From Candidatus Hydrogenedentota bacterium (lineage in GTDB: Bacteria > Hydrogenedentota > Hydrogenedentia > Hydrogenedentales > SLHB01), in NCBI GenBank assembly GCA_963745075.1, contig CAVUWV010000014.1, forward strand, positions 256,001 through 320,000: a DNA stretch of 64,000 nt, read 5' to 3'. Shown in pieces: positions 47,512 through 64,000 of the stretch. How positions within the stretch are numbered: position 1 is the first letter of the stretch; each line of letters begins with the position of its first letter. The notes under the pieces are model-generated. The model was given only the letters and a program-made list of their open reading frames with translations, had not been told where the DNA came from and searched no databases. Position numbers and translations under genes: made by a program.

Positions 47512-48756
47512 ATGCGCAAGGCATTGACACTAGTAGCCATCGTGACGCTGGCGGGACTCGTCTCTGGTTGCCCCGGAAGTGAAAAGAGCGCGTCCGACGA
47601 TAAACCGGAAGCCAAGGCTCCCGAGAAACGGACTTCCATTCCGGTGGAGGCGCAACTTCCAACTCGAGGGGAAATCTCGGAATACTTCGAAACCACCACG
47701 CGCGTCGAGGCGGAACGAAAGGTTACTGTCACCTCCGAAGGCATGGGCAAGTGCATGAAAGTCTACGTCGATGAAGGGGATCACGTCCGCGCAGGGGATG
47801 TCTTGGCTGAATTAGACAAGCAGGAGCTTGACGCTCAGCTTCGATCGGCCAACGCCCAGCTTCAGAAGTTGAAGAGCGACTACGGCCGGTCGAAGGAAAT
47901 GTTTGACGAAGGGTTGGCGGCCAAGGCCGAGTATGACAACGCCCGCTACGCCTACGAACAGCAACTCGCGGTCGTCAATCAGCAACAGGTCCAGTTGAAC
48001 AATATGACAATTCGGGCGCCCATTACCGGCGTGATTACCGTCAAGAACATTCAGCAAGGCGATTTGGTTTCGTCCGGGTCGCCGGCATTCGACGTGGTGG
48101 ACACCAATTCGTACATCCTCACGATCAACCCGCCGGAGAAACTCTTGCCGCGTTTGAAGAAGGGGCAAACCGCACTCGTGAGTGTGGACGCCGCCCAGGG
48201 CGATGAGTTCCAGGCCAAGGTTCGCCGCATCAATCCCGCGGTGGACCCCGCCAGCGGGACCATCAAAGTAACGCTGGATTTCAAAAAGGATGCGATGGCG
48301 CAGTTGCGCGAAGCAGCCTTCGCGCGGGTACGGTTGGTCATGGACACCCATGAGGACGCCCTGCTCGTGCCCAAAGATGCACTTGTCGAAGAAAATGCGC
48401 GGAAATATCTCTTCGTCGTGGAGCCAAAAACCGAAGCGTCCCCGGAGAAGACGACAACCGCGTCGACAGGTGCTGAAAAGGCTGCGGATGCGGAGGTTCT
48501 CGTGGCCAAGCGGGTCGAAGTAAACACCGGCCTGGAGGACAATGCGAACGTCGAGATCGTCGACGGTATCGATGCAGAGTCGCCTATCGTGACCGTGGGG
48601 CAGCAGACTTTGAAGCCGGGTTCGGAAGTCAAGCTGACCACGGCCGAAGACGAGCTGATGGCGAAGGCCGATATGAGTGCGGAAGAGGCTCTGAAAGCAG
48701 CGGAAGCGGAACGCGCCCGTGGCGCGAAGACGGTGGATCGCCGCCAGGGCATGTAA
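47512..48756 (+). CDS. RND efflux periplasmic adaptor (MFP), lipoprotein
   Basis: Lipobox VSG-C; V.EGD.V.AG..LAELD, IRAPITG, INPAVDP.SGT; RBS GGAGG. Confidence 0.93.
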   Translation: MRKALTLVAIVTLAGLVSGCPGSEKSASDDKPEAKAPEKRTSIPVEAQLPTRGEISEYFETTTRVEAERKVTVTSEGMGKCMKVYVDEGDHVRAGDVLAELDKQELDAQLRSANAQLQKLKSDYGRSKEMFDEGLAAKAEYDNARYAYEQQLAVVNQQQVQLNNMTIRAPITGVITVKNIQQGDLVSSGSPAFDVVDTNSYILTINPPEKLLPRLKKGQTALVSVDAAQGDEFQAKVRRINPAVDPASGTIKVTLDFKKDAMAQLREAAFARVRLVMDTHEDALLVPKDALVEENARKYLFVVEPKTEASPEKTTTASTGAEKAADAEVLVAKRVEVNTGLEDNANVEIVDGIDAESPIVTVGQQTLKPGSEVKLTTAEDELMAKADMSAEEALKAAEAERARGAKTVDRRQGM

Positions 48757-48820
48757 GCCCTGTCGCGGACGAACGGCGTCATGTGTGTTGTGGTGTTGAC
48801 CTACTGCGGATTCAATCTCT

Positions 48821-51800
48821 ATGTCTGAGCCTCTTTCTGACCCTTTCGAGCACGAGAAACAGTTCAGCCTGCCCATTCGGCGGCCGGTCACCATGGCCAT
48901 GGTGTTTCTCACCATCGTGGTGTTCGGGTGGAAGTCCTACCAAGAACTTCCCATCAATCTCATGCCGGATATCTCCTATCCCACCCTCACCGTGCGCACC
49001 GAATACGAAGGCGCCGCGCCGGAAGACGTGGAAAAACTCGTTACGCGCCCGCTGGAAGAACAGCTCAGTATCGTCAGTGGCCTCGTAGAACTCAGCAGCA
49101 CCTCTTCCGCGGGCCTGTCCGAAATCGTCATGGAGTTTACCTGGGGCACGGACATGAACGTGGCCCAACAGGACGTGCGCGACCGGCTCGACCTCTTCGA
49201 TCCCCCCAAGGAAGTCACGGAGAAACCCGTGATCCTTCGCTACGACCCGACCTTGGACCCCGTCATGCGCGTCGCCATCACCGGCGCGGACGTCTCCGAT
49301 ATCGCGGATCCCGCCGTGCGGAAGGAACGCAACCAGAATCAGTTGACCGCCATCCGCGAAGCCGCCGAGCGCTACGTGAAGAGCGACCTCGAAGCCGAAA
49401 TCGGCATCGCTCAGGTCCTGGTAAAGGGTGGCCGGGAACAGGAAGTGGAAGTCCTCGTCGACGCCGCGGCAGTCAAGAACAAAGGGCTGTCGGTCGAAGG
49501 AATCGTGCAAGCCCTGGCGCAACAGAATATCAACCTGTCCGGCGGTATCCTGCGTGACGGCAAAACCGAATATCTTGTGCGCACCTGGAATGAGTGGAAG
49601 AGTGTCCGGGAGATCCCGGATTCCGTCATCGGCAGCGTCGACGGCCGGCCCATTCGCTTGTCCGACGTGGCCATGGTGCGCATGGGGGAAAAAGACCGGG
49701 AGTCCATCGTCCGCATTAACGGGAACGAGGCCGTCGAACTCGACATCTTCAAGTGGGGTGACGCCAACACCGTCCGAACGTGCAACACGGTCAAGGATCT
49801 CCTGGGATTCGAACGGGATAAGAGCACGCTCGAAAAGCTGCGCGACTACATGAACGAGGCCTCCAAGCCGCCCACTGACGCGAACGTGCCCACCATTATC
49901 GTCATGCAACAGCTCCAGCAGGAGATGCAGAAGTCGCGCACCTTGCGGGATAAGCTGCCGGAATACTCGCATTTCTACATCGTCAGCGATCAGTCACGCT
50001 TCATCTCGTCCGCGATTAAAGAGGTCCAGTCGGCCGCGATTAACGGGGGTATCCTCGCGATCATCGTGCTGTATTTCTTCCTGAGGAAACTGAAACCGAC
50101 GTTTATCATGGGCGTCGCCATCCCCATTTCCATCGTGGCAACCTTTATCCCCATGTTCATGCAGGATATTACGCTCAACATCATGTCCCTTGGCGGGTTG
50201 GCCATGGGTGTCGGGATGCTGGTCGACAACTCGATCGTCGTCATGGAAAGCATATCGCGATGTGCCGAAGAGGGCGACGATACGTCGAACTCTGCGAACC
50301 GCGGGCGCCAGGAGGTTTTTGGCGCGCTGATTGCCTCGACTCTGACGTCCATCGCGGTGTTCTTGCCGCTCGCATTCGTCCAGGGGGTCGCGGGGCAGCT
50401 CTTCAAGGACCACGCGCTGACGGTCACGTATTCGTTGCTCGCGTCGCTGCTCGTCGCACTTTACCTGGTGCCGATGGTCGCCTCGCGAAACAAACTCTCG
50501 CTCATCGCATCCGGCGACGTGGTGTGGCTCCTGAAAGCCTACCACCAGTCCCGGGTGGACGAGGGGAAAGGACGGCTGGAATCCGCGTTAATGATTCCGC
50601 TGAACGCGGCACTGGCCTCGGCTCAGTGGCTCATCGATCAGGCAACACTGAACTACGCTCCCGCACTGGCCCGGTTCCAGAAGGCCTTTGCGGGCGGCGA
50701 GGGCACGTCTCTTATTCGCCCCATCCATCTGGTGTGGAACCTGCTTACCGGGGCCGTTCTCATCTTCCTGGTCACGCTGCTCTTCAGTATTCAGTGTGCG
50801 CTCCAGGTGCTGTTGCAAACGATCGTGACGATCTTCTTCCTGATTAGTGTCGTATTTGGCGGGGCGTTCAGCTTGGTCGCGGGAATCCTGCACGTCGTGC
50901 TCTGGATTCCACTGTGGTTGTTTGACACCGGGTTTGAAGCGTTCCGCAAGAGTTATACGATATGGCTGCGCTATGCGTTGCGTTGGAGTCCGGCCGTTCT
51001 GGTCCTGGTGGTTCTGCTGGCGTTGCACAGCGCATCCCTGGTGCCGAGCTTGGGCCGCGAATTGATTCCCCATATGAACCAGGGCGAGTTTGGCATCCGG
51101 CTGGAGGAGCCCCCGGGCACCCGGTTGGAAGAAACCGAACGCCGCGCGCGTGAAGTCGAACGCATCGCCATGGCCGTGCCCGAGATTGATAATGTGGCCG
51201 TCGAAATCGGACAGGAGTCGCAGAAATCCACCGAGGAACGGGGCGAGAACGTAGCCGAGTTTTCCATCACCCTGAAAGATCCCAAGAAGAACGTCGTCAA
51301 ACAGGACGAGATCATGAACAACTTGCGCGTTGCCATTCAGCGCGCAACCAGCGGCGACGTGACGTTCTCTCTCCCGAGTCTTTTCAGCTTTAAGACCGCC
51401 ATTGAACTCCAGATTCGCGGAGACCAATACGACGAACTCGAACGCATTGGAAAACGCGTGGTTGCGGCCATCGGCTCCGTGCCCGGCGTCAAAGACCCCG
51501 AGTTGAACATGAAAGAAGGCTCTCCGGAAGTCATCGTGGCGCTGGACCGCGATCTCCTCGCGGCGAAGGGCATTGCTCCGGAAACGGTCGCGCAGCGCTT
51601 GCGCACCGAGGTTCAGGGTGAGAAACCCACCGAACTGAACCGGCAAGGCGAAAAGATCGACATCCGGGTGCGGACCGATCGCTCGATGCTTGCCAGCGTC
51701 GACGATCTGAAACGCTTGTCCGTCGTGGATGGCTATCCGCCGATTCCGTTGGAGTCCGTGGCCCGCATTTCCGTGCAGGAAGGGCCAAATGAGATCAAGC

Positions 51801-52459
51801 GGATCGACCAGCGGCAGGTCGCGCTGGTGACGGCCAACGTGTCCGGCCGCGATCTCGGTGCGGTTATGGACGACGTGTTGGCGGCGGTGAATGACGTGGA
51901 CGTGCCCCGTGGTTACGAGATCAGCCCCAGCGGTCAGGACCGCGAATTGCGTACCGCCTATTCGAGCCTGCAATTCGCTCTGATCCTTGCGGTGTTTCTG
52001 GTCTACGTCGTGATGGCGTGTCAGTTCGAATCGATTCTCCATCCGGCCCTCGTGATGACGACCGTGCCGCTCGCGACCATCGGGGTGATTTATACGTTGT
52101 CCGCCATGTCGGTCAGCATCAGCATCCTGGTCTATATCGGCGTCATCGTTCTCGCCGGAATTGTGGTCAATAACGCCATCGTTCTCGTCGATTACATCAA
52201 TCAACTGATCGAACGCGGCATGCTGCGCGGCGACGCGGTCGTCGAGGCGGGCCGCGTGCGGCTGCGCCCAATTCTGATGACGACCTTGACGACCATTCTC
52301 GGCCTGTGGCCCATGGCCGTGGCTACCGGCGAAGGTGATGAAATCCGGCGTCCCATGGCGGTGACGATTATGGCCGGCTTGGCCTCGTCAACTTTGTTGA
52401 CCCTCGTCGTCATTCCCATGGTCTACTACCTCTTCGGCGGACGGGGCAAAAAAGCGTGA
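48821..52459 (+). CDS. RND efflux permease subunit 1 (AcrB/AcrD/AcrF family)
   Basis: RRPV, P...E..VT.PLEE, GMLVDNSIVV.E, GIVVNNAIVLVD, RLRPILMTT. Confidence 0.95.
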   Translation: MSEPLSDPFEHEKQFSLPIRRPVTMAMVFLTIVVFGWKSYQELPINLMPDISYPTLTVRTEYEGAAPEDVEKLVTRPLEEQLSIVSGLVELSSTSSAGLSEIVMEFTWGTDMNVAQQDVRDRLDLFDPPKEVTEKPVILRYDPTLDPVMRVAITGADVSDIADPAVRKERNQNQLTAIREAAERYVKSDLEAEIGIAQVLVKGGREQEVEVLVDAAAVKNKGLSVEGIVQALAQQNINLSGGILRDGKTEYLVRTWNEWKSVREIPDSVIGSVDGRPIRLSDVAMVRMGEKDRESIVRINGNEAVELDIFKWGDANTVRTCNTVKDLLGFERDKSTLEKLRDYMNEASKPPTDANVPTIIVMQQLQQEMQKSRTLRDKLPEYSHFYIVSDQSRFISSAIKEVQSAAINGGILAIIVLYFFLRKLKPTFIMGVAIPISIVATFIPMFMQDITLNIMSLGGLAMGVGMLVDNSIVVMESISRCAEEGDDTSNSANRGRQEVFGALIASTLTSIAVFLPLAFVQGVAGQLFKDHALTVTYSLLASLLVALYLVPMVASRNKLSLIASGDVVWLLKAYHQSRVDEGKGRLESALMIPLNAALASAQWLIDQATLNYAPALARFQKAFAGGEGTSLIRPIHLVWNLLTGAVLIFLVTLLFSIQCALQVLLQTIVTIFFLISVVFGGAFSLVAGILHVVLWIPLWLFDTGFEAFRKSYTIWLRYALRWSPAVLVLVVLLALHSASLVPSLGRELIPHMNQGEFGIRLEEPPGTRLEETERRAREVERIAMAVPEIDNVAVEIGQESQKSTEERGENVAEFSITLKDPKKNVVKQDEIMNNLRVAIQRATSGDVTFSLPSLFSFKTAIELQIRGDQYDELERIGKRVVAAIGSVPGVKDPELNMKEGSPEVIVALDRDLLAAKGIAPETVAQRLRTEVQGEKPTELNRQGEKIDIRVRTDRSMLASVDDLKRLSVVDGYPPIPLESVARISVQEGPNEIKRIDQRQVALVTANVSGRDLGAVMDDVLAAVNDVDVPRGYEISPSGQDRELRTAYSSLQFALILAVFLVYVVMACQFESILHPALVMTTVPLATIGVIYTLSAMSVSISILVYIGVIVLAGIVVNNAIVLVDYINQLIERGMLRGDAVVEAGRVRLRPILMTTLTTILGLWPMAVATGEGDEIRRPMAVTIMAGLASSTLLTLVVIPMVYYLFGGRGKKA

Positions 52460-55400
52460 AGCGGTCCCTTCCAGGCATAGCGCTCAGCCGCCCGATCACC
52501 GTAATCATGCTCGTGCTGACGGTGATCGGTTTGGGTATCATTGCACGCTATCGAATTCCCCTCGAGTTCTTGCCGCCCATCGATCTCCCCTTCATCTTCT
52601 GCCAGATTCCCTATGTCGGCGCGACGCCCTCTCAGGTGGAGAAGGAAGTCGCCATTCCCGCCGAAGGCGAGTTCCGCACGCTATCGAACTTGAAACGAAT
52701 CCAAACCACGTCCGACATGAACGGATGCGTCGTCCGCATCTTCTTCGATATGGGTACCGACATGTCCCTGGCTACGGCCGAGGTTCGAGATCGGATCGAG
52801 CGGCTAAAGCTGGACTTGCCGGATGAGATCGAGCGCATCGCGATACGTAAGTTCAGCTCCAATTCCATGCCGATTATGGCATTCGCCTTATACGGTCCCG
52901 GCGATGACGAGGAACTCACCTACCTGGTGCGAACCGTGCTGCAACCTCGCATGATGCGCCTCGAAGGGGTCGCGGACGTCAGCGTATTCGGCAAACCGGA
53001 ACGCGAAGTGCTGATTGAGTTCAATCAGTCCGAGTTGCGCAGCCGTGGCTTGAGCCTCTTTCAGGTCGTGTCCGCGCTGCGGCAAACCAGTATCAACATG
53101 ACCGTCGGCGACATGGTAGACGGAAATACGCGCTATTACGTCCGGGCCCTCGACGAATTCACCACTCCGGAAGATCTCGGGCAACTCGTGGTCGGTCCAA
53201 ACGCGTTGCGCTTGCGCGACGTCGCCGACGTAGGTTACCGCACCCGCGACGTGACCTCCGGATACGCCATCGATGGGCAATCCGGCACGTTCTTGTTGGT
53301 CCGCAAGGAGTCGGAAGCCAATACGATCGCCACGTGTAAAGCGGTTCAGGACGAACTCGGACGCATGGAGACCGATCCCCAATTCAAGGGGGTCCAGTAC
53401 TTCATGTTCTTCGATCAGAGCGATATGATTCTCTCCGCCCTCAATGGGCTGGTCGCCGCGGGCAAGTACGGCGGCACACTGGCGGTCATTGTCCTCTTTC
53501 TCTTTCTGGGGCGGATTCGGCCCACGCTCATCGTCGCGCTGGCCATTCCCGCGTCGATCGTGGTGGCGCTGGTATTCATGTTCTTCATCGGCATGACGCT
53601 CAACGTCGTGACGATGATCTCGCTGATTATCGGCCTCGGCATGCTGGTGGATAATTCGATCGTCGTCATCGAAAACATTACACGTCACATCCAATTGGGA
53701 TGCTCCGCCAAGGAAGGCGCGCTTCGCGGCGCTGCGGAAATGGCCATGGCAATATCCGCATCCACCTTGACGACCTGCGTGGTATTCATCCCCATCGTCT
53801 ACCTTGGCGCGGGGGAGATGTCAACGTACATGCGCGCTTTCGCGATACCCATCACGGTTTCCCTGGTGGCTAGCCTCGTTATCGCGTTGACGGTCATTCC
53901 CTTGGCGGCGAGCCGTATGAAGCCGCGGCATGAACTGGCATTGCTGCGAGTATTCAGCCGGCCCGCGATGGCGCAGACCCCCGGCTCGTCCGCGTCGCTC
54001 CCCGGCAAACGCCGGTTTCGTTTTCCCCGGTTCATGCACCCCATCCACTATTTGATTGATTCCTACATCCGATGCCTGGACTGGGTCTTGCGCTGGCGAC
54101 TCGCCACCGCCGTCGTGATCCTTGCGGTTATTGCCGTGACGTTTGCAATCCCCTTCATGCACCTCAAACGGCAGGGGATGCCCACCGTCGATACGCGGCG
54201 AATTTCCATTGAGGTGCAACTCGATCAAGGCTTTACGCTTCAGGAAGCGCGCAATACCTTCGATGAAATCGAGGGGGTTATCGACGAACAACGCGACGAA
54301 CTCGGCATCAAGAACGTCTTTGTCCGCTACGACACAACAGGCGGCAGTGTGGACGTCTACCTCTACACCGACGAAGACCTGGAAGAGAGCGGGGGTACGC
54401 TTCCGTACACCACCGACCAGGTGATGGACATTCTCTGGCAGCGGATGCCGGCTCGGGTGCCGGGCGGTGAACTCCGCTTCTCCATCGCCGAGGCGAGTGA
54501 AACGTCCTCACGCTCATTCGCGCTGCAAGTGCGCGGCGACGACGCCCAAACGTTATCGAAATACGCCGAGCGCTTGAAAGTCCTGATGAAGGAGAACATC
54601 CCCGAGATTCAGGAGATCACGACGGATTCGGACCGCGCCAAGCAGGAAGTGCAGATCGACGTCAATGAAACCTTGGCGGAGTTCTACGGGCTCACGCCCC
54701 TCGCTATCGCTCAGACCGTTGATTTTGCCCTGCGAGGGATTCAGATCACCAAGTTGAAGCAGGGGGGACGGGAGATTCCGGTTTGGGCCCAATTCCAGGA
54801 AGAAGATCGCAAATCACGGAGCAACCTCGAAAACGTGACCGTGTACGGATCCAAGGGGCAACCGGTGCCCATCGAACGGGTCGTCGAATTCTCGAAAGAC
54901 AAAAGCCCCCAGGCGATCGTCCGCGTCAACGGCAAAAACGTTGTCTCGCTTACCGCGAAAATCCGCGGAGAAGACTTGGGCGGCGTGTTGGACAAGCTCA
55001 AGACGCTCCTGAACGACTTCGACCTTCCGCGAGGGTATACCGTCGAGTTTGGAGACGAATTGCTCGCGCTCGACGAAAACATGTCGAACTTCAGCACCGC
55101 GTTCTTTCTCGCACTGGTCCTGATCTATATCGTCATGGGCGCCGTCTTCGAATCCTACTTGTTGCCTTGGTCTATTCTGACCACGATCCCGTTGGCCGGC
55201 ATCGGCGTAGTCTGGTCTCTCTACATTTTCGATTCGCCTGTCGATACCGTGACCATGATTGGGATCATCCTGCTTCTGGGAATCATCGTAAACAACGGGA
55301 TCGTGTTGATCGACTACATCAACCAGATGCGCAAGTCCGGCATGGACCGTCACGACGCCATCATCGGCTCCGGACGCGACCGGTTCCGGCCCGTCATGAT

Positions 55401-55626
55401 GACGGCGTTGACGACAATTCTGGGGTGCGTTCCTCTCGCCCTGGGCGGCGCCATCGGCGGCGAAGTTTCCTTCGGCGGTCTCGGGCGCGCCCTCATCGGC
55501 GGCCTTACCACGGGCACGATCCTGACCCTCTTCATCGTACCCGTCACCTACACCATCTTCGACGATATCCGCATCTGGTTCCTCGAGTTCTTTTCAAACG
55601 TCGCCTCTATCTTCCAGCGCGCGTAG
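52456..55626 (+). CDS. RND efflux permease subunit 2 (AcrB/AcrD/AcrF family)
   Basis: GMLVDNSIVVIEN, GIIVNNGIVLID, RFRPVMMT; GTGA overlap with subunit 1. Confidence 0.95.
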   Translation: MKRSLPGIALSRPITVIMLVLTVIGLGIIARYRIPLEFLPPIDLPFIFCQIPYVGATPSQVEKEVAIPAEGEFRTLSNLKRIQTTSDMNGCVVRIFFDMGTDMSLATAEVRDRIERLKLDLPDEIERIAIRKFSSNSMPIMAFALYGPGDDEELTYLVRTVLQPRMMRLEGVADVSVFGKPEREVLIEFNQSELRSRGLSLFQVVSALRQTSINMTVGDMVDGNTRYYVRALDEFTTPEDLGQLVVGPNALRLRDVADVGYRTRDVTSGYAIDGQSGTFLLVRKESEANTIATCKAVQDELGRMETDPQFKGVQYFMFFDQSDMILSALNGLVAAGKYGGTLAVIVLFLFLGRIRPTLIVALAIPASIVVALVFMFFIGMTLNVVTMISLIIGLGMLVDNSIVVIENITRHIQLGCSAKEGALRGAAEMAMAISASTLTTCVVFIPIVYLGAGEMSTYMRAFAIPITVSLVASLVIALTVIPLAASRMKPRHELALLRVFSRPAMAQTPGSSASLPGKRRFRFPRFMHPIHYLIDSYIRCLDWVLRWRLATAVVILAVIAVTFAIPFMHLKRQGMPTVDTRRISIEVQLDQGFTLQEARNTFDEIEGVIDEQRDELGIKNVFVRYDTTGGSVDVYLYTDEDLEESGGTLPYTTDQVMDILWQRMPARVPGGELRFSIAEASETSSRSFALQVRGDDAQTLSKYAERLKVLMKENIPEIQEITTDSDRAKQEVQIDVNETLAEFYGLTPLAIAQTVDFALRGIQITKLKQGGREIPVWAQFQEEDRKSRSNLENVTVYGSKGQPVPIERVVEFSKDKSPQAIVRVNGKNVVSLTAKIRGEDLGGVLDKLKTLLNDFDLPRGYTVEFGDELLALDENMSNFSTAFFLALVLIYIVMGAVFESYLLPWSILTTIPLAGIGVVWSLYIFDSPVDTVTMIGIILLLGIIVNNGIVLIDYINQMRKSGMDRHDAIIGSGRDRFRPVMMTALTTILGCVPLALGGAIGGEVSFGGLGRALIGGLTTGTILTLFIVPVTYTIFDDIRIWFLEFFSNVASIFQRA

Positions 55627-55649: not shown

Positions 55650-56936
55650 TTACTTGCGCAACGCCTGCAGCTCGTACTCCGGCAGCTTCTTCTCCGCAAA
55701 AATTGGTTTGAATCGGGTGAAGCGCTGGCGCCCATTGACGACCGGCACGCTTGCCCAGTCTTCTCCGATCAGCGGTTTTGCGTAGCGCACGAAATCGTCC
55801 GTGACGTCGATCTTGTTCGAGGCGAGCCATTCCTTCGGGAACGTGCGCTCCGAGTTGGCGACCTTCTCCAGCGGCACCTGGTCGTACCGCACGTTGTAGA
55901 TGGGACCCGGCTCGCGCAGAATCGTCGCCATCCAGCCGTTCTCGCCTTCGTGCGCGATCAGGGCGGCTTTCTGACCCACCTTGTAGGCTTCGTCGAGGTC
56001 GGGAATGGACGCGTACAAACAGGTGTCACGCTGATCCGTGCCGGAAACCTGGCCCCGGGCCGCGCCGGGCACGGGCAAGCCCCGTTCGTTTAACATCGTC
56101 ACAACTTGCTGAGCGACGGTCGTCTTAGACGCGCTGAACTGGGTATGGCCGAAGCTGTCTTTGGTCGCGCCGATATCGCCGACTTCAAACCCTTCGCTGA
56201 CCACGATGATGCAGCGGCCGTCCCGCTTGAGTCGATCGTTGACGTTGTCGCACATCTCCTCGGCGGTGACCGCGGACTCGGTCAGGTAGATCTGCAAGGG
56301 GATTTCCCGTTTCGGATCCGCGAGTCGTGCCGCGGCGGGGATGTAGCCGATTTTGCGCCCCATGGCTTGCAGCACCAGTACGGGGTCGGCGGGGGACGAA
56401 CCGGCATTTTCCTCATTCGCGTTCTGGACGATGCCCATCCAGTACCGCGCGACCGACCCGTACCCCGGCGTGTGGTCGATAAGTTTGAACTCCGAATCGC
56501 CCACGTCGTTGTCGATAGTTTTCGGGACCCCGACAGCCACCAAATCAAGTCCTCGTTCGTGCGCGAGCACACTGATCTTGTGGGCCGTGTCCATCGAATC
56601 GTTGCCGCCGTTGTAGAAGAAGTAACCGATGTCATGGGCCTTCATGACCTCAATGACACGCTCGAAATCTTCATTCTGGTTCTTCTTCAACTTGTACCGG
56701 CACGTGCCGATGGAACCCGCCGCGGGGGTGTAGCGGAGCAGCGCGACTTCCTCTTCGTCCTGGGCGGAGAGGTTCAACAGTTCCTCTTTCAACACGCCCT
56801 CGATGCCGTGCCATCCCGCGTAGATGGTCCCGAAGGTGTCCGGAAACATTTTGCAGGCGTCAATGACGCCGCGAAGCGAGCTATTGATAACCGGGCTTGG
56901 ACCGCCCGATTGTGCCACGATAACGTTCTTTGGCAT
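55650..56936 (-). CDS. pfp: PfkA-family, probably PPi-dependent phosphofructokinase-like kinase
   Basis: QSGGPSPVIN, GGNDS (Asp indicates PPi use), PKTIDND, MGR, VSEG. Confidence 0.85.
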   Translation of the reverse strand: MPKNVIVAQSGGPSPVINSSLRGVIDACKMFPDTFGTIYAGWHGIEGVLKEELLNLSAQDEEEVALLRYTPAAGSIGTCRYKLKKNQNEDFERVIEVMKAHDIGYFFYNGGNDSMDTAHKISVLAHERGLDLVAVGVPKTIDNDVGDSEFKLIDHTPGYGSVARYWMGIVQNANEENAGSSPADPVLVLQAMGRKIGYIPAAARLADPKREIPLQIYLTESAVTAEEMCDNVNDRLKRDGRCIIVVSEGFEVGDIGATKDSFGHTQFSASKTTVAQQVVTMLNERGLPVPGAARGQVSGTDQRDTCLYASIPDLDEAYKVGQKAALIAHEGENGWMATILREPGPIYNVRYDQVPLEKVANSERTFPKEWLASNKIDVTDDFVRYAKPLIGEDWASVPVVNGRQRFTRFKPIFAEKKLPEYELQALRK

Positions 56937-56991
56937 CCCCCTGTTACTCCTTTCTAACGATAAAATGAATGGCGTCGCAAATACGCCCCCT

Positions 56992-57071
56992 GTCATCCTG
57001 AGCGCCAGCGAAGGATCTCATTACGCCTGCGCTTCTCTATCTGGAGATCCTTCGCTGGCGCTCAGGATGAC
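56992..57071. repeat. 28-bp perfect inverted repeat (same family as 19918-20002)
   Basis: GTCATCCTGAGCGCCAGCGAAGGATCTC-N24-GAGATCCTTCGCTGGCGCTCAGGATGAC. Confidence 0.9.
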
Positions 57072-57117
57072 GGAGCTGTGTCTCCTGGCAGAACGGGCGC
57101 CAGGCCCCGTTGATCCT

Positions 57118-58404
57118 CTAACCGCCAACCACGGCAGGCCGTCGCGGTTCTGGATTGCCCTGCCTTAATCGATACAATACCTCGCCGGCCCGTTCGACGC
57201 GAAGCAGCCCTTCGTCTTTACGGTTTCGCCAGTCCTCCGGATCGATCGAAGCGGGGTCGCGATAGCCGAGGTTGATGGCTTTACACTCGTCCTCGGGTAT
57301 CGATGTGGCCAGCGTCACCTGCACGCGGCACTTCTCCACGCCGTCCTCATAGGTGCCAATCCCGCGCACATGCGTCGAGTGGGCGAGAATGCCGCCGGGG
57401 ATGTCCCGGAAACGATCCATCTGGGCGAGGAAATAGTCGCGCGTGTGATACCCGATCTTCTTGATGAGTTCACCGTGGGTCACGCTTACTTCTTTAATAT
57501 GCGGACCGTAGATGATCAGCTCGCCGCCGTCGGCCACAACCGGCTCCAGTTTGTACATGCACTTGCCCGCAACCCAAATCTCGTCATACATCTCGGGCGC
57601 CATGGCCAGCACGCTCTTGAAGGGGCGGTCCATATAACGGATGTGCGTCTGCGCGGACAGGTCCGCCGCAGCATCCCAGGCCTCTTCCGGCGTTCCGTAG
57701 AAGATACCCTTGCAGTCCTTGCCCATGACGTTCAGGCAGAAACAACGTTTCTCGATATGAATCATGGACGCGGCCGTGTCCACCACTTTGCGGACCGGCG
57801 TGTGTTTCGTCCCATTGATCATGGGATTCGTAATCAACGCGCCGAGCCAATGGAACACGTTTAAGATCTCAGCGCCCGCGATGCCGGGGAAGAAGTACTT
57901 GTTGCCCCCGCTGAATCCAACGACCTCGTGAGGGAATACCGGACCTACAACGCAGATCAGATCGTAGTCGAAGATGCGTCTGTTGATCGTGACGTCGACG
58001 CGCTCATGCAGCAAACCCTGCGAAATCTCGCCGAGCATGTCTTCGGTGAGGGTGCCGATTTTCATCAGGGCGTGGGTGTTCTTCCATTCGTGGTTGAAGA
58101 TGCCGACGTTGCGATACTTGCCCTCGCGTTCCTCACGGGAGATCCCCACGAGTTTCCGGATTGCCGTCTCAGGCATCGGGGGATGGGTGCCAAGCGCGAT
58201 CAGAAAATCCATCTTTGCCACGCGCAGGTGCAAGGTGTCGTGCAATGCACGGAACATCGCGGGCATGGGCATGCTGCGAGTCGCATCGGGTATGATGAAA
58301 AGCACGCGTTTTCCCTGGACGTGCTCCTTGGCAAAGGCCTCGCGCACATAGCGATCGAGCTGGTCGTCGGTCAGGTACCCCGAATCTTGAACGCGTTGAA
58401 TCAT
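57118..58404 (-). CDS. LarA-family (nickel-pincer) 2-hydroxyacid racemase/epimerase
   Basis: PDATRS, ALGTH, PHEVVGFSGGNK, FHW, GKCMYK. Confidence 0.88.
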   Translation of the reverse strand: MIQRVQDSGYLTDDQLDRYVREAFAKEHVQGKRVLFIIPDATRSMPMPAMFRALHDTLHLRVAKMDFLIALGTHPPMPETAIRKLVGISREEREGKYRNVGIFNHEWKNTHALMKIGTLTEDMLGEISQGLLHERVDVTINRRIFDYDLICVVGPVFPHEVVGFSGGNKYFFPGIAGAEILNVFHWLGALITNPMINGTKHTPVRKVVDTAASMIHIEKRCFCLNVMGKDCKGIFYGTPEEAWDAAADLSAQTHIRYMDRPFKSVLAMAPEMYDEIWVAGKCMYKLEPVVADGGELIIYGPHIKEVSVTHGELIKKIGYHTRDYFLAQMDRFRDIPGGILAHSTHVRGIGTYEDGVEKCRVQVTLATSIPEDECKAINLGYRDPASIDPEDWRNRKDEGLLRVERAGEVLYRLRQGNPEPRRPAVVGG

Positions 58405-58425
58405 CGTATGCCCGCTCTCTGTCGA

Positions 58426-58794
58426 TTATTCTGCATCGGGGTCCGGTTGATGAATGCTGAACAGAATTCCCTCCGGATCCTTGCAGGAAGCATTGTATCC
58501 CACACCGGGAACGGCTTTCTTGGGGGCGACAATTTCGCCGCCGCTTCGTTCGATCTTCGCACAAAACGCGTCGATGGAATCCACGAGAATTGTGCTCACG
58601 ACGTGCGGTGCGCCGTCGCCGCATTTCATGACGCCGCCGTCGATGCCAGGTTCGTCATCCGGCCCGGTGCTCAGAACCCAATAGTCCTCCGGTCCGCCGC
58701 AGGGATGCGCAATCCAGCCAAACACTTCCGAATAGAACCGGGCCATGCGCGCCGGATCTTCCGCGTGTATCGCGAAGTGGACTACTCGTGGCAT
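58426..58794 (-). CDS. VOC/glyoxalase-family protein
   Basis: VVHFAI.A.D..R...FY..VFGW, PGIDGG, KDPEG. Confidence 0.9.
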   Translation of the reverse strand: MPRVVHFAIHAEDPARMARFYSEVFGWIAHPCGGPEDYWVLSTGPDDEPGIDGGVMKCGDGAPHVVSTILVDSIDAFCAKIERSGGEIVAPKKAVPGVGYNASCKDPEGILFSIHQPDPDAE

Positions 58795-58829
58795 TTCAAT
58801 TCTCCGTGATGCGCTCGAACTCGCCGCGC

Positions 58830-59972
58830 TCAGGTCGTCCGAAAACCGAGACCCCTGAGACAATCCAGCATCTCGGAATTCTCCGGTTGCACCGTTACCC
58901 GCGTATTGTGAAACTCCCGGCGACGCGGGTATTCCTTGCGCAGTCGGTCAAAATAAGCGCCGCGTTCTTCCGGCGCCTTGTGTATTATAGCGCGCAATTC
59001 ACGGTCGTCGTTCCGGATGTCGTATACCGCCGAAACGGTCTTCAGAATGGCTTCCTGCAGCGGCAGGGAGCCATTCACCGTATATTCCGGGCAATCGGGT
59101 GCCGGCAAGTCGGGTGCGGGATCCCATTTTGGCGTGACACCCAGATGGTGGCATGCCGCCTCATACACTTGCCGGGTGCCGTTCACTTTGCCATCGAAGG
59201 AATAGCCTGCGATGTGCGGCGTCGCCAGAGCAAGATTCGCCAGCAAATCGAGATCGATGTTCGGTTCGCCTTCCCAAACGTCCAGGACGCTCGCGCCCAC
59301 TTTGCCGGATTCGAGCGCGGCGCGCAATGCATCGCCGTCGACCACGGAACCGCGCGACGTATTGATGATTATCGCGCCCGTCTTCAACCGCTCGAAGAAG
59401 GCGGCGTCCAGCAGGTGGTACGTGGCGTCGGGACCGTCCTTGGTGAGCGGTACGTGTACGGTGATGATCTGGCAATCGAAGATCTCGTCCTTCGGGCGGT
59501 ACCGGTCGTCGCCGGTTTTCCGTGCAAGGGGCGGGTCGTTCAACACACACTCCATGCCCAAGGCGCGTGCCTTTTGTTCGACACGCTTACCCACATTGCC
59601 GTGGCCGACGATGCCGAGACGACGGTCCGGCAAGTTGAACCCGCGGGTTTCCGCAAGCACCAGCAGCGCTTCGGCCAGGTATTCGCCGACGCTGTTCGCG
59701 TTGCAACCCGGCGCGCTCGAGAATCCAATGCCCTGCTCAGCGAGATAGGACCTGTCCACGTGGTCTTCGCCGATGGTTGCGGTGCCGACAAACTGAACCT
59801 TGGTCCCGTCCAGAAGGTCGCGGTTCACCTTGGTGATGGAACGAACAAACAAAAGGTCTGCGTCGCGAACCAGGTTGCGGTCCATGGCGCGGCCGGACGC
59901 GGTGACGACCTCTCCCAGCAGGCCAAATGCTTCGCGCGCGTACGGTATGTTTTCGTCTGCGACAATTTTCAT
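58830..59972 (-). CDS. pdxB: 4-phosphoerythronate dehydrogenase
   Basis: MKIVADENIPY, VRSITKV, TATIGEDH, APGCNA.SV.EY, G.GNVG, HVPLT, LDVWEGEP, TPHIAGYS.DGK, FDRLRKEYPRRRE. Confidence 0.93.
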   Translation of the reverse strand: MKIVADENIPYAREAFGLLGEVVTASGRAMDRNLVRDADLLFVRSITKVNRDLLDGTKVQFVGTATIGEDHVDRSYLAEQGIGFSSAPGCNANSVGEYLAEALLVLAETRGFNLPDRRLGIVGHGNVGKRVEQKARALGMECVLNDPPLARKTGDDRYRPKDEIFDCQIITVHVPLTKDGPDATYHLLDAAFFERLKTGAIIINTSRGSVVDGDALRAALESGKVGASVLDVWEGEPNIDLDLLANLALATPHIAGYSFDGKVNGTRQVYEAACHHLGVTPKWDPAPDLPAPDCPEYTVNGSLPLQEAILKTVSAVYDIRNDDRELRAIIHKAPEERGAYFDRLRKEYPRRREFHNTRVTVQPENSEMLDCLRGLGFRTT

Positions 59973-59982
59973 GAGGCGCTGC

Positions 59983-60873
59983 TCAGGATTTCCAGGGCGG
60001 CGTTTCGGGAAGGAACGAGTCAAATTCCTTGATCAGCGCCTCCTCGTATGAGCCCGAGTAGGTCCCGCCGAAGAACTTATCCAGGGCTTCGTCGTGAAGC
60101 CGTTGCCAGGACACTTCCTCCTGACCCGGATTGATGGGGAAGAAAAGCGCGTTGTTGGCCCGCGCGGCCTTCATGTCGCCGGGAGCGTCACCGATCATGA
60201 GCATCTTCTCATTCTCATACCGGCCTTCGGCCGCGAACGCGATATGTTCCGCTTTCTTACCCATTTCCTGGCCGGCGATGGCGAAGACATACTGCGCGAT
60301 ACCCTGTTCGGCCCACTCGCGGGTCAGGGCTTCGGTCGGCGTCTGCGAACAGACCAGCATGTCCGCGCGATCCTTGGCCTTCTCCAGCGATTCACGGACG
60401 TGGGGGAAGGGAGGGAGCCCATCTTTGACGATTTCCGACACGGTCACGTTCACGGCCTTGCTCCAATCAAGGGTCCGGAGCATATCGGCTTCATCGTGGC
60501 TCTTGCAGTAAGCTTCGAGGGCGGGGTTCCCCAGCTTGGACTCGGTCTCCACCCACTTCTTCAAATTGGGGATGTCCGGCGCCTTCCACCCGCGCTCCTG
60601 CACCTTGTCCCAGTCGCTGAGCAGGTCGAAGGTCAGCAGCAAGGCGGGAAAACGATTCACGCCGCGCCACTTGGAATACAGGTTCACAAACTCGGCCGCA
60701 GCCCGCGCGAACTTCGAAATCGGTTGCAGATTCCAGTGCTTAATAATGTTCGGTATAAAGCACTCCTTGTGCTTCACCTCCATGGTGTCAAAGGCGCAGC
60801 CATCGGAGTCGATAGCAATAAGAAAGTCTTTATTAGGCGTATGGTCCTTCAATGCTGCGACCGGATCACTCAT
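59983..60873 (-). CDS. HAD-family phosphatase
   Basis: IDSDG..FDTM, CSQT, GKK, MIGDAPGD. Confidence 0.9.
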   Translation of the reverse strand: MSDPVAALKDHTPNKDFLIAIDSDGCAFDTMEVKHKECFIPNIIKHWNLQPISKFARAAAEFVNLYSKWRGVNRFPALLLTFDLLSDWDKVQERGWKAPDIPNLKKWVETESKLGNPALEAYCKSHDEADMLRTLDWSKAVNVTVSEIVKDGLPPFPHVRESLEKAKDRADMLVCSQTPTEALTREWAEQGIAQYVFAIAGQEMGKKAEHIAFAAEGRYENEKMLMIGDAPGDMKAARANNALFFPINPGQEEVSWQRLHDEALDKFFGGTYSGSYEEALIKEFDSFLPETPPWKS

Positions 60874-60969
60874 GGTTGATACCTTTCCAATTCTAAATCC
60901 TATGTGTATTTTATATTTTACAATTTTGGGCTGTGTTTGGGACCGGTGCCTCCGCCGATCAAGCGACTG

Positions 60970-61803
60970 CTACACCCCTGCGAACGCCGAGAATCCCCCG
61001 TCAACCGGAACGGCAATCCCCGTCACAAACCGGGAGGCATCCGACGCCAGCCACAGGGCCGCACCGATGAGATCTTCGCCCACGCCGAAATCGCCCATGG
61101 GCGTATGGTCGATGATGGCCTGCCCACGTTCGGTCAGATCTCCGGTTCGGTCGTTCGTCAGGAGAAACTGATTCTGTGCCGTGAGGAAGAAACCCGGCGC
61201 GATGGCGTTCACACGAATCTTTTTGCCGCAATCCTTGGCCAGATGCACGGCCAGCCACTGCGTGAAGTTGTTCACGGCACCCTTGGCCGCGCTGTACCCC
61301 ACGATACGGGTCAGCGGCCGAAGAGCGGCCATGGACGAAATATTGATGATCGAACCACCGTGCTCGTTGTCCAGCATTCTTTTCCCAAACACCTGGCAAG
61401 GCTTGACTACCGAGGAGAGGAAGTTCAGTTCCATCACCGTGCGGATGGCGTCGATGGGGAGGTCAAAGAACGTTTGCTCGGGGGTGGTGGTGGCATCTTT
61501 AAGATTGCCGCCGACGCAATTTACGAGGATATCGACTTTCCCGAATTCCTTGTAGATCTCATCACACAGCTCCTCGACCGCGCCTTCCTTCATCGCATCG
61601 AGTTCATAACCCTTTGCATGCCCGCAACTTTCCGCCAGGATGCCGGATACGTATTCGGCCTTATCCATCGTGATATTGGTCACGGCGCATTCGGCGCCCG
61701 CACGTGCGAACCCGCAGGCGATGGAACTTCCGAGCGCCCCACCTCCACCGGTGATGACGGCCACTTTGCCTTTCAGGTTGTAGATGTCGGTACCTTCTGA
61801 CAA
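60970..61803 (-). CDS. SDR oxidoreductase, D-mannonate oxidoreductase (UxuB/fructuronate reductase)-like
   Basis: TGGGGALG, DILVN..GGN...ATT, FFDL, NISSM.A.RPLTR..GYSAAK.AV.NFTQWLAVH, APGFF.T.QN, HTPM; TTG after AAGGAG. Confidence 0.85.
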   Translation of the reverse strand: MSEGTDIYNLKGKVAVITGGGGALGSSIACGFARAGAECAVTNITMDKAEYVSGILAESCGHAKGYELDAMKEGAVEELCDEIYKEFGKVDILVNCVGGNLKDATTTPEQTFFDLPIDAIRTVMELNFLSSVVKPCQVFGKRMLDNEHGGSIINISSMAALRPLTRIVGYSAAKGAVNNFTQWLAVHLAKDCGKKIRVNAIAPGFFLTAQNQFLLTNDRTGDLTERGQAIIDHTPMGDFGVGEDLIGAALWLASDASRFVTGIAVPVDGGFSAFAGV

Positions 61804-62176
61804 GGCAATGCTCCTTTCCGAGAAATCCTGCGTTTGGCGGCGGGATTGGTTGAGCCCGTGGTGGGGATTACTGCGCGAATACCCCCTAACCACACAGCCT
61901 ATGAACGTACCATACACGTCGCGGGGATTCAAGAATCGGGCAGAAAATCGGACGCAATTTGTCGCTGTCCGTACGATTCCGGGATTCCTTGGCGCCTTCA
62001 CCATCCAGGAGTGTCGGTTTTCGCACAACTTTGGACCGGGCCGCCCAAGCATCACGCGCTCCCAGTGGGGCCACAATCAAACCTCAAAGGGGCATGGCCG
62101 CCTATCTTGTGGTATCCTGGACTTCAGGCAGATTCGGTGGATCTTGGGTAGATATTCACTTCGGCAACAATACGAG

Positions 62177-64000
62177 ATGATGACGTTAAACACCCGCACG
62201 CTATGTTTTCTCATCGCCATCCTTCTTTCGCTGGACTTAAGCGCCGCGTGGGGAGATGGCGTGTCGCCAGAAGTTGCGTCGTCTGCCCTGGAATCCGCCG
62301 GCTATCCCGCCTTGGATTACGCCGTCAGGCTTGCTTGGCGCGAACGAGCACCGCACGTGCCCCCGACGTACGTGAACGGATACCATTTGCAGCCGATTAC
62401 CGGCGGTGACACCTTCGACGTATACCTCTCGGATTCCGGAGAACTGCTCACGGAATCTACGCTGGCGGTGTTGGGGATTCAGCCGAAACAGTGGGATCGT
62501 CCCCCGGTTGAACAGCGGGCAGAATCGATCCGGCCCACGACCAAGGCCCTTTCACATCATGTAATTGCGGTGGGGCCGAAATGGGCAGTTCCCATCAGCG
62601 GAGCCGCCTTGCTCGACGAGGTGAACCTCGATGAGGTGCGTGCCGAGGATGCCAACCGCGAGGCCGCGTCCGGCAAGGGGCCGGAACGAATTGGCGTGAT
62701 TCAAGAGCTTTCTGAGGCCGTCACCGTAAATGGCAATATCCTGACGCACGGATTCTGGCAACCGGTCCCCAGCGGAGGCTATCTGTGGTCGGTGGCCCTG
62801 TATTCTCCCGACGCGCTCGGGATTCGCGTCCACTTCGAGGAAATCAAACTTCCGGTGGGTGGCACGGTGGTCGTGTACAACGCGAACGATCCGGACGAAG
62901 CGCACGGGCCCTATCCAGCATCGGGCACAACCGCCAACGACCTGTGGAGCGCAACCTGTTTCACGGACATAGTGGTGGTCGAGTGCTTTGTGCCCGCGGA
63001 CGCGCCGCGCGATGCGGTTCGGATCACCATCGACCGAATCGTCCACAACTACATTCCGTTCGGCGAACTGACTTGGACGAAGTCGGCGGGGACGTGCAAC
63101 GTAGATGTGTCCTGCTATCCGGATTGGGCCGACGCGGCCACGGGGGTCGGGGGCGTCGGCAGCGTTGGGTACAACGGCAATTTCTTTTGTTCGGGTTGCC
63201 TGCTCGCGGATACGGACACGGATACTGACGTTCCCTACTTCCTGACGGCGAACCATTGCGTGAGCACCGAATCCCAGGCGAGCAGTCTCGAAATCTATTG
63301 GCTTTACCAGACCCCCGCGTGCAACGGCGTACCGCCGAATCCCGCAACCGTTCCGCGTACCACGGGCGGTGCGGCGCTATTGGCCACGACAACGGCCACG
63401 GACGGAACCGATTTCTGCCTCCTCCGTCTCAACAACATCCCCCCGCCGGTTTGACCGCCATGGGGTGGTCGTCGGCGCCGACCCCGCTCACGACCAACAC
63501 CGTCTGTATTCATCACCCCTCGGCCGATTTCAAACGAATCACCTTTGGCGTCGTGACGGATGCGAATGAGGCGCTGCGCGATCTACGTCCCGCGACACGG
63601 TTTTACCAATCCAGTTGGACACTCGGGACTACGGAACCCGGCTCGTCGGGAAGTCCCCTGTTCATCGCATCCACGCAGCAGGTGATCGGCCAGTTGTGGG
63701 GCGGGCCGGGATCGTGTACGACAAGCACCAATCTCGACTACTTCGGCCGTTTTGACGTGGGGTTCCCGCTGATGGCGGCGTATCTTGATCCCGGTATTAC
63801 TCCCACGATTACCGTCGCCACGCCGGACAGCGCGAAGAATTGGCCCCTTGGCGAACGGCGTCGCATTCGCTGGACGTCAACCGGCGACGTTGGTCCGAAG
63901 GTGCAGATCGAGTTGTGGCGGAATGGCGGGGTGATTCAGGTCCTCCGCAGCAACACCAATAACGACGGCAAAGCGGGCTGGAACATCGATCCGGCCCTGG
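62177..64000 (+). CDS. Secreted lysyl endopeptidase-like (trypsin-fold) serine protease, frameshifted at a C6 tract, runs off the window
   Basis: CNVDV.C, CSG.LL, YFLTANHC, DFCLL. After adding one C at 63439-63444: GWS, IHHP..D.KRI, TEPGSSGSPLF, IGQLWGG, then an Ig-like domain. Confidence 0.85.

Follow-up and report, generated by a model that had tools for sequence, protein, structure and literature searches.

A conserved Hydrogenedentota operon as the candidate middle part of a UxuA-independent hexuronate route

The DNA analysed here, called the window in the following, is a stretch of 64,000 nucleotides (C14:256001-320000) from a Candidatus Hydrogenedentota genome (G000), a 6.8 Mb assembly that is 89.7% complete. 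It carries a conserved Hydrogenedentota operon of genes for a short-chain dehydrogenase/reductase (SDR), a HAD protein, PdxB, a LarA-family epimerase and a phosphofructokinase (PFK)-like protein, which in relatives runs on into gnd. We lean towards the view that this operon forms the middle of a UxuA-independent route from hexuronates to the pentose phosphate pathway, in which the PFK paralog (here termed the operon PFK) and the HAD protein fill the slot of the kinase. The underlying sequence of steps, glucuronate to fructuronate, mannonate, gluconate, 6-phosphogluconate and on to Gnd without UxuA, is likely on the basis of the protein families present; we infer substrates and step order from enzyme identities, gene order, distribution, cofactor genes and the absence of known alternatives. 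Published work is cited by PMC number and drawn on in excerpt.

Gene content and conservation of the operon

Six intact open reading frames, all on the minus strand, occupy positions 55650-61803 (Table 1) and are separated, from SDR to operon PFK, by 96, 10, 35, 21 and 181 bases. They had been described as co-directional genes with short gaps in the original prediction, which was made from the window alone. Its family labels (UxuB-like SDR, HAD, PdxB, VOC, LarA, PPi-kinase, PPi being pyrophosphate) were borne out by profile cut-offs for SDR, PdxB and PFK, those for VOC and HAD being superfamily labels only. That the six genes form a conserved operon held in part. Loci were collected around 80 of 150 LarA relatives (LarA loci), the closest of which come mostly from Candidatus Hydrogenedentota. 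In 31/31 loci with a LarA identity of at least 62%, the order SDR-HAD-PdxB-(VOC)-LarA-PFK-gnd-(TIM)-(GhrB) is unbroken within the reach of each locus, TIM and GhrB standing for a TIM-barrel epimerase-like gene and a GhrB-like reductase gene. Within these close loci SDR is found 22 times, HAD 24, PdxB 27, VOC 6, PFK 23, gnd 21, TIM 11 and GhrB 14 times. Thus the order of five predicted members is kept and the real operon continues with gnd and two more genes, whereas VOC occurs in only 6/80 LarA loci, all at a LarA identity of at least 77%; we exclude it from the pathway as probably a recent passenger. In L011 and L022, gnd lies on the opposite strand.

In the close relatives L006 and L008 the sequence that follows the stop codon of PFK corresponds to C24:303558-299003 of G000, which indicates that the operon is split in G000, apparently through rearrangement or assembly. 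The detached second half (L089, C24:299007-302513) consists of gnd, the TIM-barrel epimerase-like gene and the GhrB-like reductase gene. A second, intact gnd is part of a tkt-tal-gnd-zwf cluster on C28. At 79 metagenome loci collected around PFK relatives (PFK loci), gnd is present 37 times, LarA 35, HAD 34, SDR 31 and PdxB 21 times, their order being shuffled outside the phylum. At 13/79 of these loci (L094-L117) the larA-pfk gap is filled by a TPR-containing protein of about 200-240 amino acids.

The survey of the phylum covered 126 genomes at least 80% complete, and a set of 95 made up of G000 and 94 genomes at least 90% complete; these genomes are kin and their counts are not independent. 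LarA had a match in 110/126 genomes (in one just a 31% paralog), the operon PFK in 106/126 and HAD in 114/126. All three occur together in 101/126 genomes, and 10/126 have none of them.

The probable trunk from hexuronate to 6-phosphogluconate

Entry into the proposed route is encoded away from the operon. A BH0493-type uronate isomerase, predicted to make D-fructuronate, lies on C17 at about 116370-117640 (L252:8371-9645; E 1.7e-167 to BH0493) and escapes PF02614 and NCBIfam. Searches of G000 with PF02614, UxaE and UxaA gave no match, and the reading that an entry enzyme is lacking, which had come from the PF02614 blank, was overturned by this protein. The genome search for uxaC, uxuA and gntK suggested by the original prediction hence had a mixed outcome: a uronate isomerase of BH0493 type was found, whereas the classical UxaC family (PF02614), uxuA and GntK/IdnK gave no match in G000. 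In the phylum, classical UxaC is present in 34/126 genomes at E < 1e-100. A divergent-isomerase query matches 73/95 genomes, weakly, and 18 of the remaining 22 have classical UxaC, which brings genomes with either match to 91/95. Among 12 divergent-isomerase loci inspected, 10 encode proteins 56-73% identical to that of C17, and the other 2 represent a second family. The BH0493-type isomerase and classical UxaC largely alternate across the phylum; UxaE gave one weak match (1/95). In other lineages a uronate isomerase lies within the same gene set, at 18/80 LarA loci and 6/79 PFK loci. G000 also encodes a more distant uronate-isomerase-like amidohydrolase (C27:237491-238909, L173:7492-8910; 4I6V at E 6.6e-28, no Pfam match).

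The SDR passes the D-mannonate oxidoreductase profile NF006132 (PRK08277) with 331.6 bits against a cut-off of 281, and contains the TGxxxGxG motif and the catalytic YSAAK at position 170. It would reduce the 5-keto group of the uronate to the manno configuration, which the LarA protein, as a nickel-pincer enzyme, would then invert at C2 to the gluco configuration.

The LarA protein is predicted to be a group-19 (GntE1-type) hexonate 2-epimerase. The residue set noted originally for nickel-pincer catalysis is complete: D40, R43, H74, H159, K169, H185 and K281 correspond to D72, R75, H108, H174, K184, H200 and K298 of the LarA superfamily, and all seven catalytic or cofactor residues are invariant in 108/108 aligned sequences. 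Lar_N scores above its Pfam cut-off. The nearest solved relative is 4NAR (E 6.6e-74, compared with 2.5e-8 to 1.2e-5 for lactate racemases), which is GntE2 (LarAH20) of Thermotoga, a proven mannonate/gluconate epimerase (PMC7583248). This match had suggested group 20, an assignment dropped on the signature count. Over the 20 signature columns of Desguin et al. 2020 (PMC7583248), a test of columns only, made without a tree of reference proteins and omitting rows shorter than 380-390 amino acids, LarA agrees with group 19 at 18/20 positions, group 18 at 13/20 and group 20 at 12/20. Group 19 gives the highest signature score in 98/98 close sequences; for 10 distant sequences taken from PFK loci it is group 18. 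PMC11770544 describes an E, V, A, H signature for GntE proteins, which is present, and the E-S loop and N-A-A-V-I-N helix-14 signature of group 20 (GntE2) was not found. The protein also stays below the NCBIfam cut-offs for LarAH group 18 and for lactate and malate racemases (NF052594 194 < 500, NF033504 68.7 < 460, NF052593 94.6 < 500, NF052595 71.1 < 462), in keeping with the expectation that it does not belong with those racemases. For the characterised group-19 enzyme the KM with free mannonate is 120 mM, and the authors of that work suspect another native substrate (PMC7583248).

Genes for synthesis of the nickel-pincer cofactor, larB and larC on C11 and larE on C24, all score over their cut-offs; like uxuA, they are absent from the window, as originally stated, and their presence in the genome answers the check proposed there. 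A match to uxuA was not obtained in G000 and was obtained in only 3/126 phylum genomes. Together with gnd in the operon of relatives, this agrees with the predicted bypass of UxuA from mannonate to gluconate, which is known in outline from the gntE route of Thermotoga. The three uxuA genomes (G113, G114 and G115) all belong to genus g26; G115 has the full operon too, and in the fragmented assemblies G113 and G114 larA was not found.

The substrate of Gnd is 6-phosphogluconate, and Gnd, encoded by the next gene in relatives and on C24 in G000, would decarboxylate it to ribulose 5-phosphate. A zwf gene is present in 74/95 genomes; G006, G007, G026 and G037 (92-98% complete) have gnd in the operon and gave no zwf match. 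PdxB, which had been listed among the enzymes of a sugar-acid operon, is more simply explained as a vitamin B6 enzyme, and probably is one: it passes the equivalog NF001309 (447.2 against 434; 3OET at E 1.6e-98), it is the sole PdxB-level match in G000, and pdxJ is found on C21 of G000 and in 93/95 genomes. That it is encoded next to gnd would equally agree with a role in clearing 4-phosphoerythronate; this compound inhibits Gnd in cells growing on gluconate, and phosphatases remove it (PMC6449344).

The phosphorylation step

One phosphorylation is needed in this route, and known gluconate kinases were not found. GntK/IdnK (TIGR01313) gave no match in G000 or in any phylum genome (0/126); no FGGY gluconokinase scored over the cut-off in the 95-genome set (0/95), and this cut-off (648) also misses the locus-linked FGGY protein of L064 (380). 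When the loci were compared by blastp with one reference of each type (GntK, FGGY, PfkB), 18 of the 80 LarA loci contained such a kinase, 36 contained HAD or PFK, 26 neither and 0 both; at PFK loci the count of such kinases was 0/79. Of the Spirochaetota loci, L073 contains GntK without HAD, and HAD is present at L047, L049, L050, L058 and L069. Genomes outside the phylum with the HAD or PdxB type of locus lack TIGR01313 in 5/5 cases. Therefore the operon PFK and HAD pair is the most likely source of the phosphate, and, if the route is accepted, we consider it reasonably probable that the pair draws it from PPi. The deep-branching phylum member G002 has a uxaC-SDR-larA locus (L225, on C24), where HAD, operon PFK and GntK/IdnK gave no match.

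The operon PFK is the third PFK paralog of G000, beside an ATP-PFK (TIGR02482, 407 > 371) and a canonical PPi-PFK (NF010675, 479), and itself exceeds the PRK14072 cut-off (NF010675, 368.9 > 273). PPi-type PFKs are marked by the Asp of GGxD and the Lys of PKTIDND, and both are present as D113 and K139 within the retained motifs GGNDS, PKTIDND, MGR, EG and QR. The fold resembles 3HNO (TM 0.86, 37% identity). In a tree of 38 rows the protein falls into a clade with a long stem (1.17), short inner branches and support of 100/100, and its conservation within the phylum is 78-96% over full-length matches; such a stem would fit an altered function that then came under strong selection. Altered phosphate-binding residues proved unusable as proof of a new substrate, the phosphate-side positions varying across the whole family. 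At the Spirochaete and Glassbacteria loci the PFK lies outside this clade, and the idea of two independent recruitments was dropped when one origin was not rejected (approximately unbiased (AU) test, p 0.058 and 0.269). The search for the operon PFK gave no match in G037, G126, G128, G129 and G130, which carry other parts of the set.

In the HAD protein the motifs D22-x-D24, S176, K207 and G228-D229-x-x-x-D233 as well as the cap residues K34, N64, S67, R70, N73 and R74 are invariant across 58 aligned sequences, and the cap residues K34, R70 and R74 appear fit for a second anion. The predicted structure (pLDDT 95.5) has a C1 cap; its top structural match (Z 17.9, rmsd 2.9, 196 aligned residues, 17% identity) is tied with many phosphatases and mutases. 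A comparison with the sequences of solved structures returned no match, an Atlas search only generic HAD clusters, and the score for the phosphoglycolate phosphatase (Gph) equivalog is below cut-off (NF009695, 21.6 < 225). Among 22 longer relatives are fusions of HAD with Gnd (P0394) and with a mannitol-dehydrogenase-family (fructuronate-reductase-family) protein (P0409), and others with PF07470 glycoside hydrolase domains and Cof-type HADs (P0408/P0410/P0412, P0395-P0401). Two apparent PFK-HAD fusions (P0407, P0411) were set aside as artefacts, being joined via out-of-frame stretches. The HADs of L076 (G037) and L069 (G126), from genomes where the operon PFK was not found, have long tree branches (0.93 and 0.48), perhaps through relaxed selection; those of L140 and L162 are long too.

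As the leading single mechanism, itself still doubtful, we propose that the operon PFK is a PPi-dependent fructuronate kinase. Fructuronate is fructose with C6 oxidised to a carboxylate, so that a PFK acting on its C1 would produce the compound that precedes 6-phosphomannonate. The uronate would resemble fructose 6-phosphate with the carboxylate in place of the phosphate arm, and the operon PFK, retaining normal PFK chemistry, would phosphorylate its C1 hydroxyl group. The SDR would then yield 6-phosphomannonate and LarA would convert this to 6-phosphogluconate. HAD may clear off-pathway phospho-acids such as the Gnd inhibitor 4-phosphoerythronate, and PdxB may add a drain on the same compound to its role in vitamin B6 synthesis. 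The sulfofructose kinase SqiK is assigned to the PfkA family, a point that carries no weight in this proposal. A uronate version of glycolysis with a fructuronate 1-phosphate aldolase was discarded, no recurrent aldolase being found among the locus clusters.

Several observations weigh against the proposed role of the pair. In Thermogutta terrifontis, THTE_2629 (PPi-PFK), THTE_2631 (gnd) and THTE_2632 (SDR) are neighbours and gluconokinase is reported absent, but these genes are not induced on xanthan versus trehalose (fold change 0.87, 0.94 and 0.95), and the authors read the PFK as a sedoheptulose 7-phosphate kinase (PMC5673643). From gene order alone, THTE_2630 would be the HAD; L133, L143, L147 and L150 show the same order as THTE_2629-2632, PFK-HAD-gnd-SDR, without LarA in the available DNA. 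G037 (94% complete) and G126 keep HAD, LarA, SDR and gnd without a detected operon PFK. Ordinary GntK, too, occurs next to this LarA group and SDR subfamily, which thus need not use phosphorylated substrates. Furthermore, two FGGY kinases and several PfkB kinases encoded in G000 are unassigned, the limited reach of the FGGY cut-off noted above applies, and the operon-type gnd on C24 carries two frameshifts. Many of the LarA and PFK loci are short, and their phylogenetic distribution is clumped. Finally, the residue before the acidic position of the QR motif is T in 43/121 PFK family rows and is therefore no marker; the D at the next position is near-specific (22/121).

Some of these points would be accounted for if the kinase were an unrecognised gene elsewhere, a reading we regard as unlikely though serious. 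The operon PFK would then work further down the pentose pathway, on fructose 6-phosphate, on sedoheptulose 7-phosphate or in PPi balance, and HAD and PdxB would clean up 4-phosphoerythronate for high Gnd flux. The flat expression in T. terrifontis, itself without transaldolase (PMC5673643), the block of Gnd on gluconate by 4-phosphoerythronate and its removal by phosphatases (PMC6449344), the unassigned kinases of G000 and the housekeeping-like conservation of the operon PFK speak for it. PPi-PFKs do phosphorylate sedoheptulose 7-phosphate, and their roles in the excerpts of PMC12203962 comprise fructose 6-phosphate, sedoheptulose 7-phosphate and PPi balance, the word uronate not occurring there. 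However, this reading leaves unexplained why HAD/PFK and known kinases exclude each other at the loci. LarA, HAD and operon PFK are jointly missing in 10 genomes, and G000 has two other PFKs and a transaldolase, the latter also disposing of the idea that the operon PFK is a needed transaldolase bypass there. Rather less credible to us is that HAD acts as a phosphotransferase, which, with fructose or sedoheptulose bisphosphate as donor, phosphorylates gluconate or mannonate via an aspartyl-phosphate while the PPi-PFK only regenerates the donor, the net result being conversion of PPi and gluconate to 6-phosphogluconate. HAD is the most widely kept member, persists without a detected PFK partner in G037 and G126, and occurs at 0/18 known-kinase loci, unlike the prediction for a general Gnd-protecting phosphatase; its two pathway-related fusions (P0394, P0409), its pairing with a PFK of another clade at Spirochaete/Glassbacteria loci and the invariant K34, R70 and R74 of its cap point the same way. 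Yet the folds closest to it belong to phosphatases and beta-phosphoglucomutases with 7-19% identity, a literature search gave no such HAD activity, the two PFK types are possibly one clade by the AU values, each fusion is a single cluster from one contig, and the long PFK stem is left unexplained.

The original prediction had placed the phosphorylation after epimerisation. A direct PPi-dependent gluconate or mannonate 6-kinase standing in for GntK would match the position of the operon PFK between larA and gnd, the slot of gntK in L073, L079, L083 and L084, and also its long stem followed by strong conservation. PFK-family enzymes act on cyclic ketose phosphates, an open-chain aldonate fits this family poorly, and no change is seen in the sugar-binding motifs TIDND, MGR, EG and QR, which makes this order of steps improbable. 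We likewise give little credence to another sugar acid in place of glucuronate as substrate (L-gulonate, 5-ketogluconate, 2-ketogluconate or an inositol product), entering via the TIM-barrel 3-epimerase and the GhrB-like reductase encoded after gnd. The Hydrogenedentota-type operon indeed holds no uronate isomerase, and L-gulonate enters via fructuronate in H. influenzae (PMC5788505). The TIM-barrel protein, which weakly matches IolO and psicose 3-epimerase, and the reductase are encoded at 11/31 and 14/31 close loci, thus each at fewer than half. Uronate isomerases, on the other hand, occur in 91/95 genomes and inside the gene set elsewhere (18/80 and 6/79 loci), and such entries would join the same trunk anyway.

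Surroundings of the operon, known routes and implications

Table 1. Features of the operon region, in window coordinates
Feature	Position	Strand	Basis
SDR, D-mannonate oxidoreductase (fructuronate reductase) subfamily	60970..61803	-	277 aa, TTG start, NF006132
HAD, uncharacterised C1-cap phosphatase or phosphotransferase	59983..60873	-	296 aa, HAD motifs and model
PdxB, 4-phosphoerythronate dehydrogenase	58830..59972	-	380 aa, NF001309
VOC/glyoxalase-like protein	58426..58794	-	122 aa, PF00903 38.5 > 20.6
LarA-family nickel-pincer 2-epimerase, predicted group 19 (GntE1 type)	57118..58404	-	428 aa, signature and 4NAR
REP-like palindrome between larA and pfk	56992..57071	.	perfect 28-base arms; outside pathway
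Operon PFK, PRK14072-family pyrophosphate-type PFK paralog, candidate sugar-acid kinase	55650..56936	-	428 aa, NF010675

The 181-base larA-pfk gap contains a palindrome of 28+28 bases, whose relatives amount to 37 blastn pieces on 13 contigs (both strands and the self match counted). A separate dispersed repeat of about 170 bases, with many copies in G000, occurs in the operon gaps of L008. A scan of the locus for promoters and terminators gave signals no higher than shuffle level. On the plus strand at 47512-55626 lies an RND-type efflux set (by eye, one membrane-fusion gene and two large transporter genes), ending 23 bases from the operon PFK stop, where gnd comes next in relatives. On the other side (61784-64000, plus strand), a secreted trypsin-like protease gene is apparently split over two frames (61784-63454; 63256 onward). 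Together with split gnd and PfkB genes elsewhere, this suggests an indel-prone assembly.

The closest known system is the hexuronate shunt of Thermotoga maritima, in which uxaE, fructuronate reductase, gntE and gntK genes occur with gnd (PMC6978723, PMC7583248). As there, an SDR fructuronate reductase, a nickel-pincer hexonate 2-epimerase and Gnd are predicted to be encoded in one unit, and these features of that shunt, with a uronate isomerase in addition, are present here. By contrast, the epimerase is of predicted group 19 rather than 20, a gluconate kinase was not recognised and UxaE not found, the operon PFK, HAD and PdxB are added, the BH0493-type isomerase is located elsewhere, and the set is near-core in the phylum. 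With LarAH19/GntE1 of Corynebacterium glutamicum (PMC7583248) LarA shares 18/20 group-19 positions and all catalytic and cofactor residues, but ahead of the catalytic lysine it has V and G where T and A stand in that protein, the G being as in group 20; the published group-19 gene context, in the excerpts of that paper, lists no PFK, HAD or gnd. L. suebicus epimerises 6-phosphomannonate, by genes that the excerpts of PMC6978723 do not identify. Its route, in which phosphorylation precedes epimerisation and which ends at 6-phosphogluconate and Gnd, would match the leading mechanism from 6-phosphomannonate onward. It differs in that its kinase is ATP-dependent, GntK-like by the authors' guess, and that it ends in phosphoketolase (PMC6978723).

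The operon PFK shares its fold, GGxD and PKTIDND with the PRK14072 PPi-PFKs (3HNO, 3K2Q; NF010675), and is set apart from them by its separate long-stemmed clade, a five-residue insert after TIDND, the sequence GTDQR and its ties to HAD, gnd, SDR and LarA. Similar to Pho13/PGP and B. subtilis CpgA proofreading (PMC6449344), a phosphatase beside gnd and PdxB could protect Gnd; unlike Pho13/PGP, HAD lies outside the PGP family by profile score and lacks a close solved relative. Literature searches, judged from their result lists, gave no account of a PFK/HAD pair in such a route.

The trunk of the route is known in outline; new is a predicted, nearly phylum-wide route with the operon PFK and HAD pair where a gluconate kinase is expected, the enzyme of the phosphorylation being unaccounted for across a phylum that retains the rest. 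By automatic annotation these genomes look incapable of using uronates, as the isomerase escapes PF02614/NCBIfam and uxuA, uxaE and gntK are absent, a picture that the proposed route would correct. It is tempting to speculate further that the operon PFK is a PPi-dependent fructuronate 1-kinase, and as such a novel type within the PfkA family, or forms a PPi-driven phosphate relay with HAD, and that, together with a group-19 epimerase that takes 6-phosphomannonate, it constitutes an ATP-sparing, redox-neutral core pathway of nearly all Hydrogenedentota, scattered in other phyla; we hold this for possible, though somewhat less than probable. If true, the orphan 6-phosphomannonate epimerase activity would gain a gene family and the poor KM of GntE1 an explanation. 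Should the operon PFK, alone or with HAD, carry out the phosphorylation with PPi, a textbook enzyme family would acquire a new activity, and the pathway would represent an ATP-saving, redox-neutral fermentation of uronic acids, a goal named for pectin conversion in PMC6978723.

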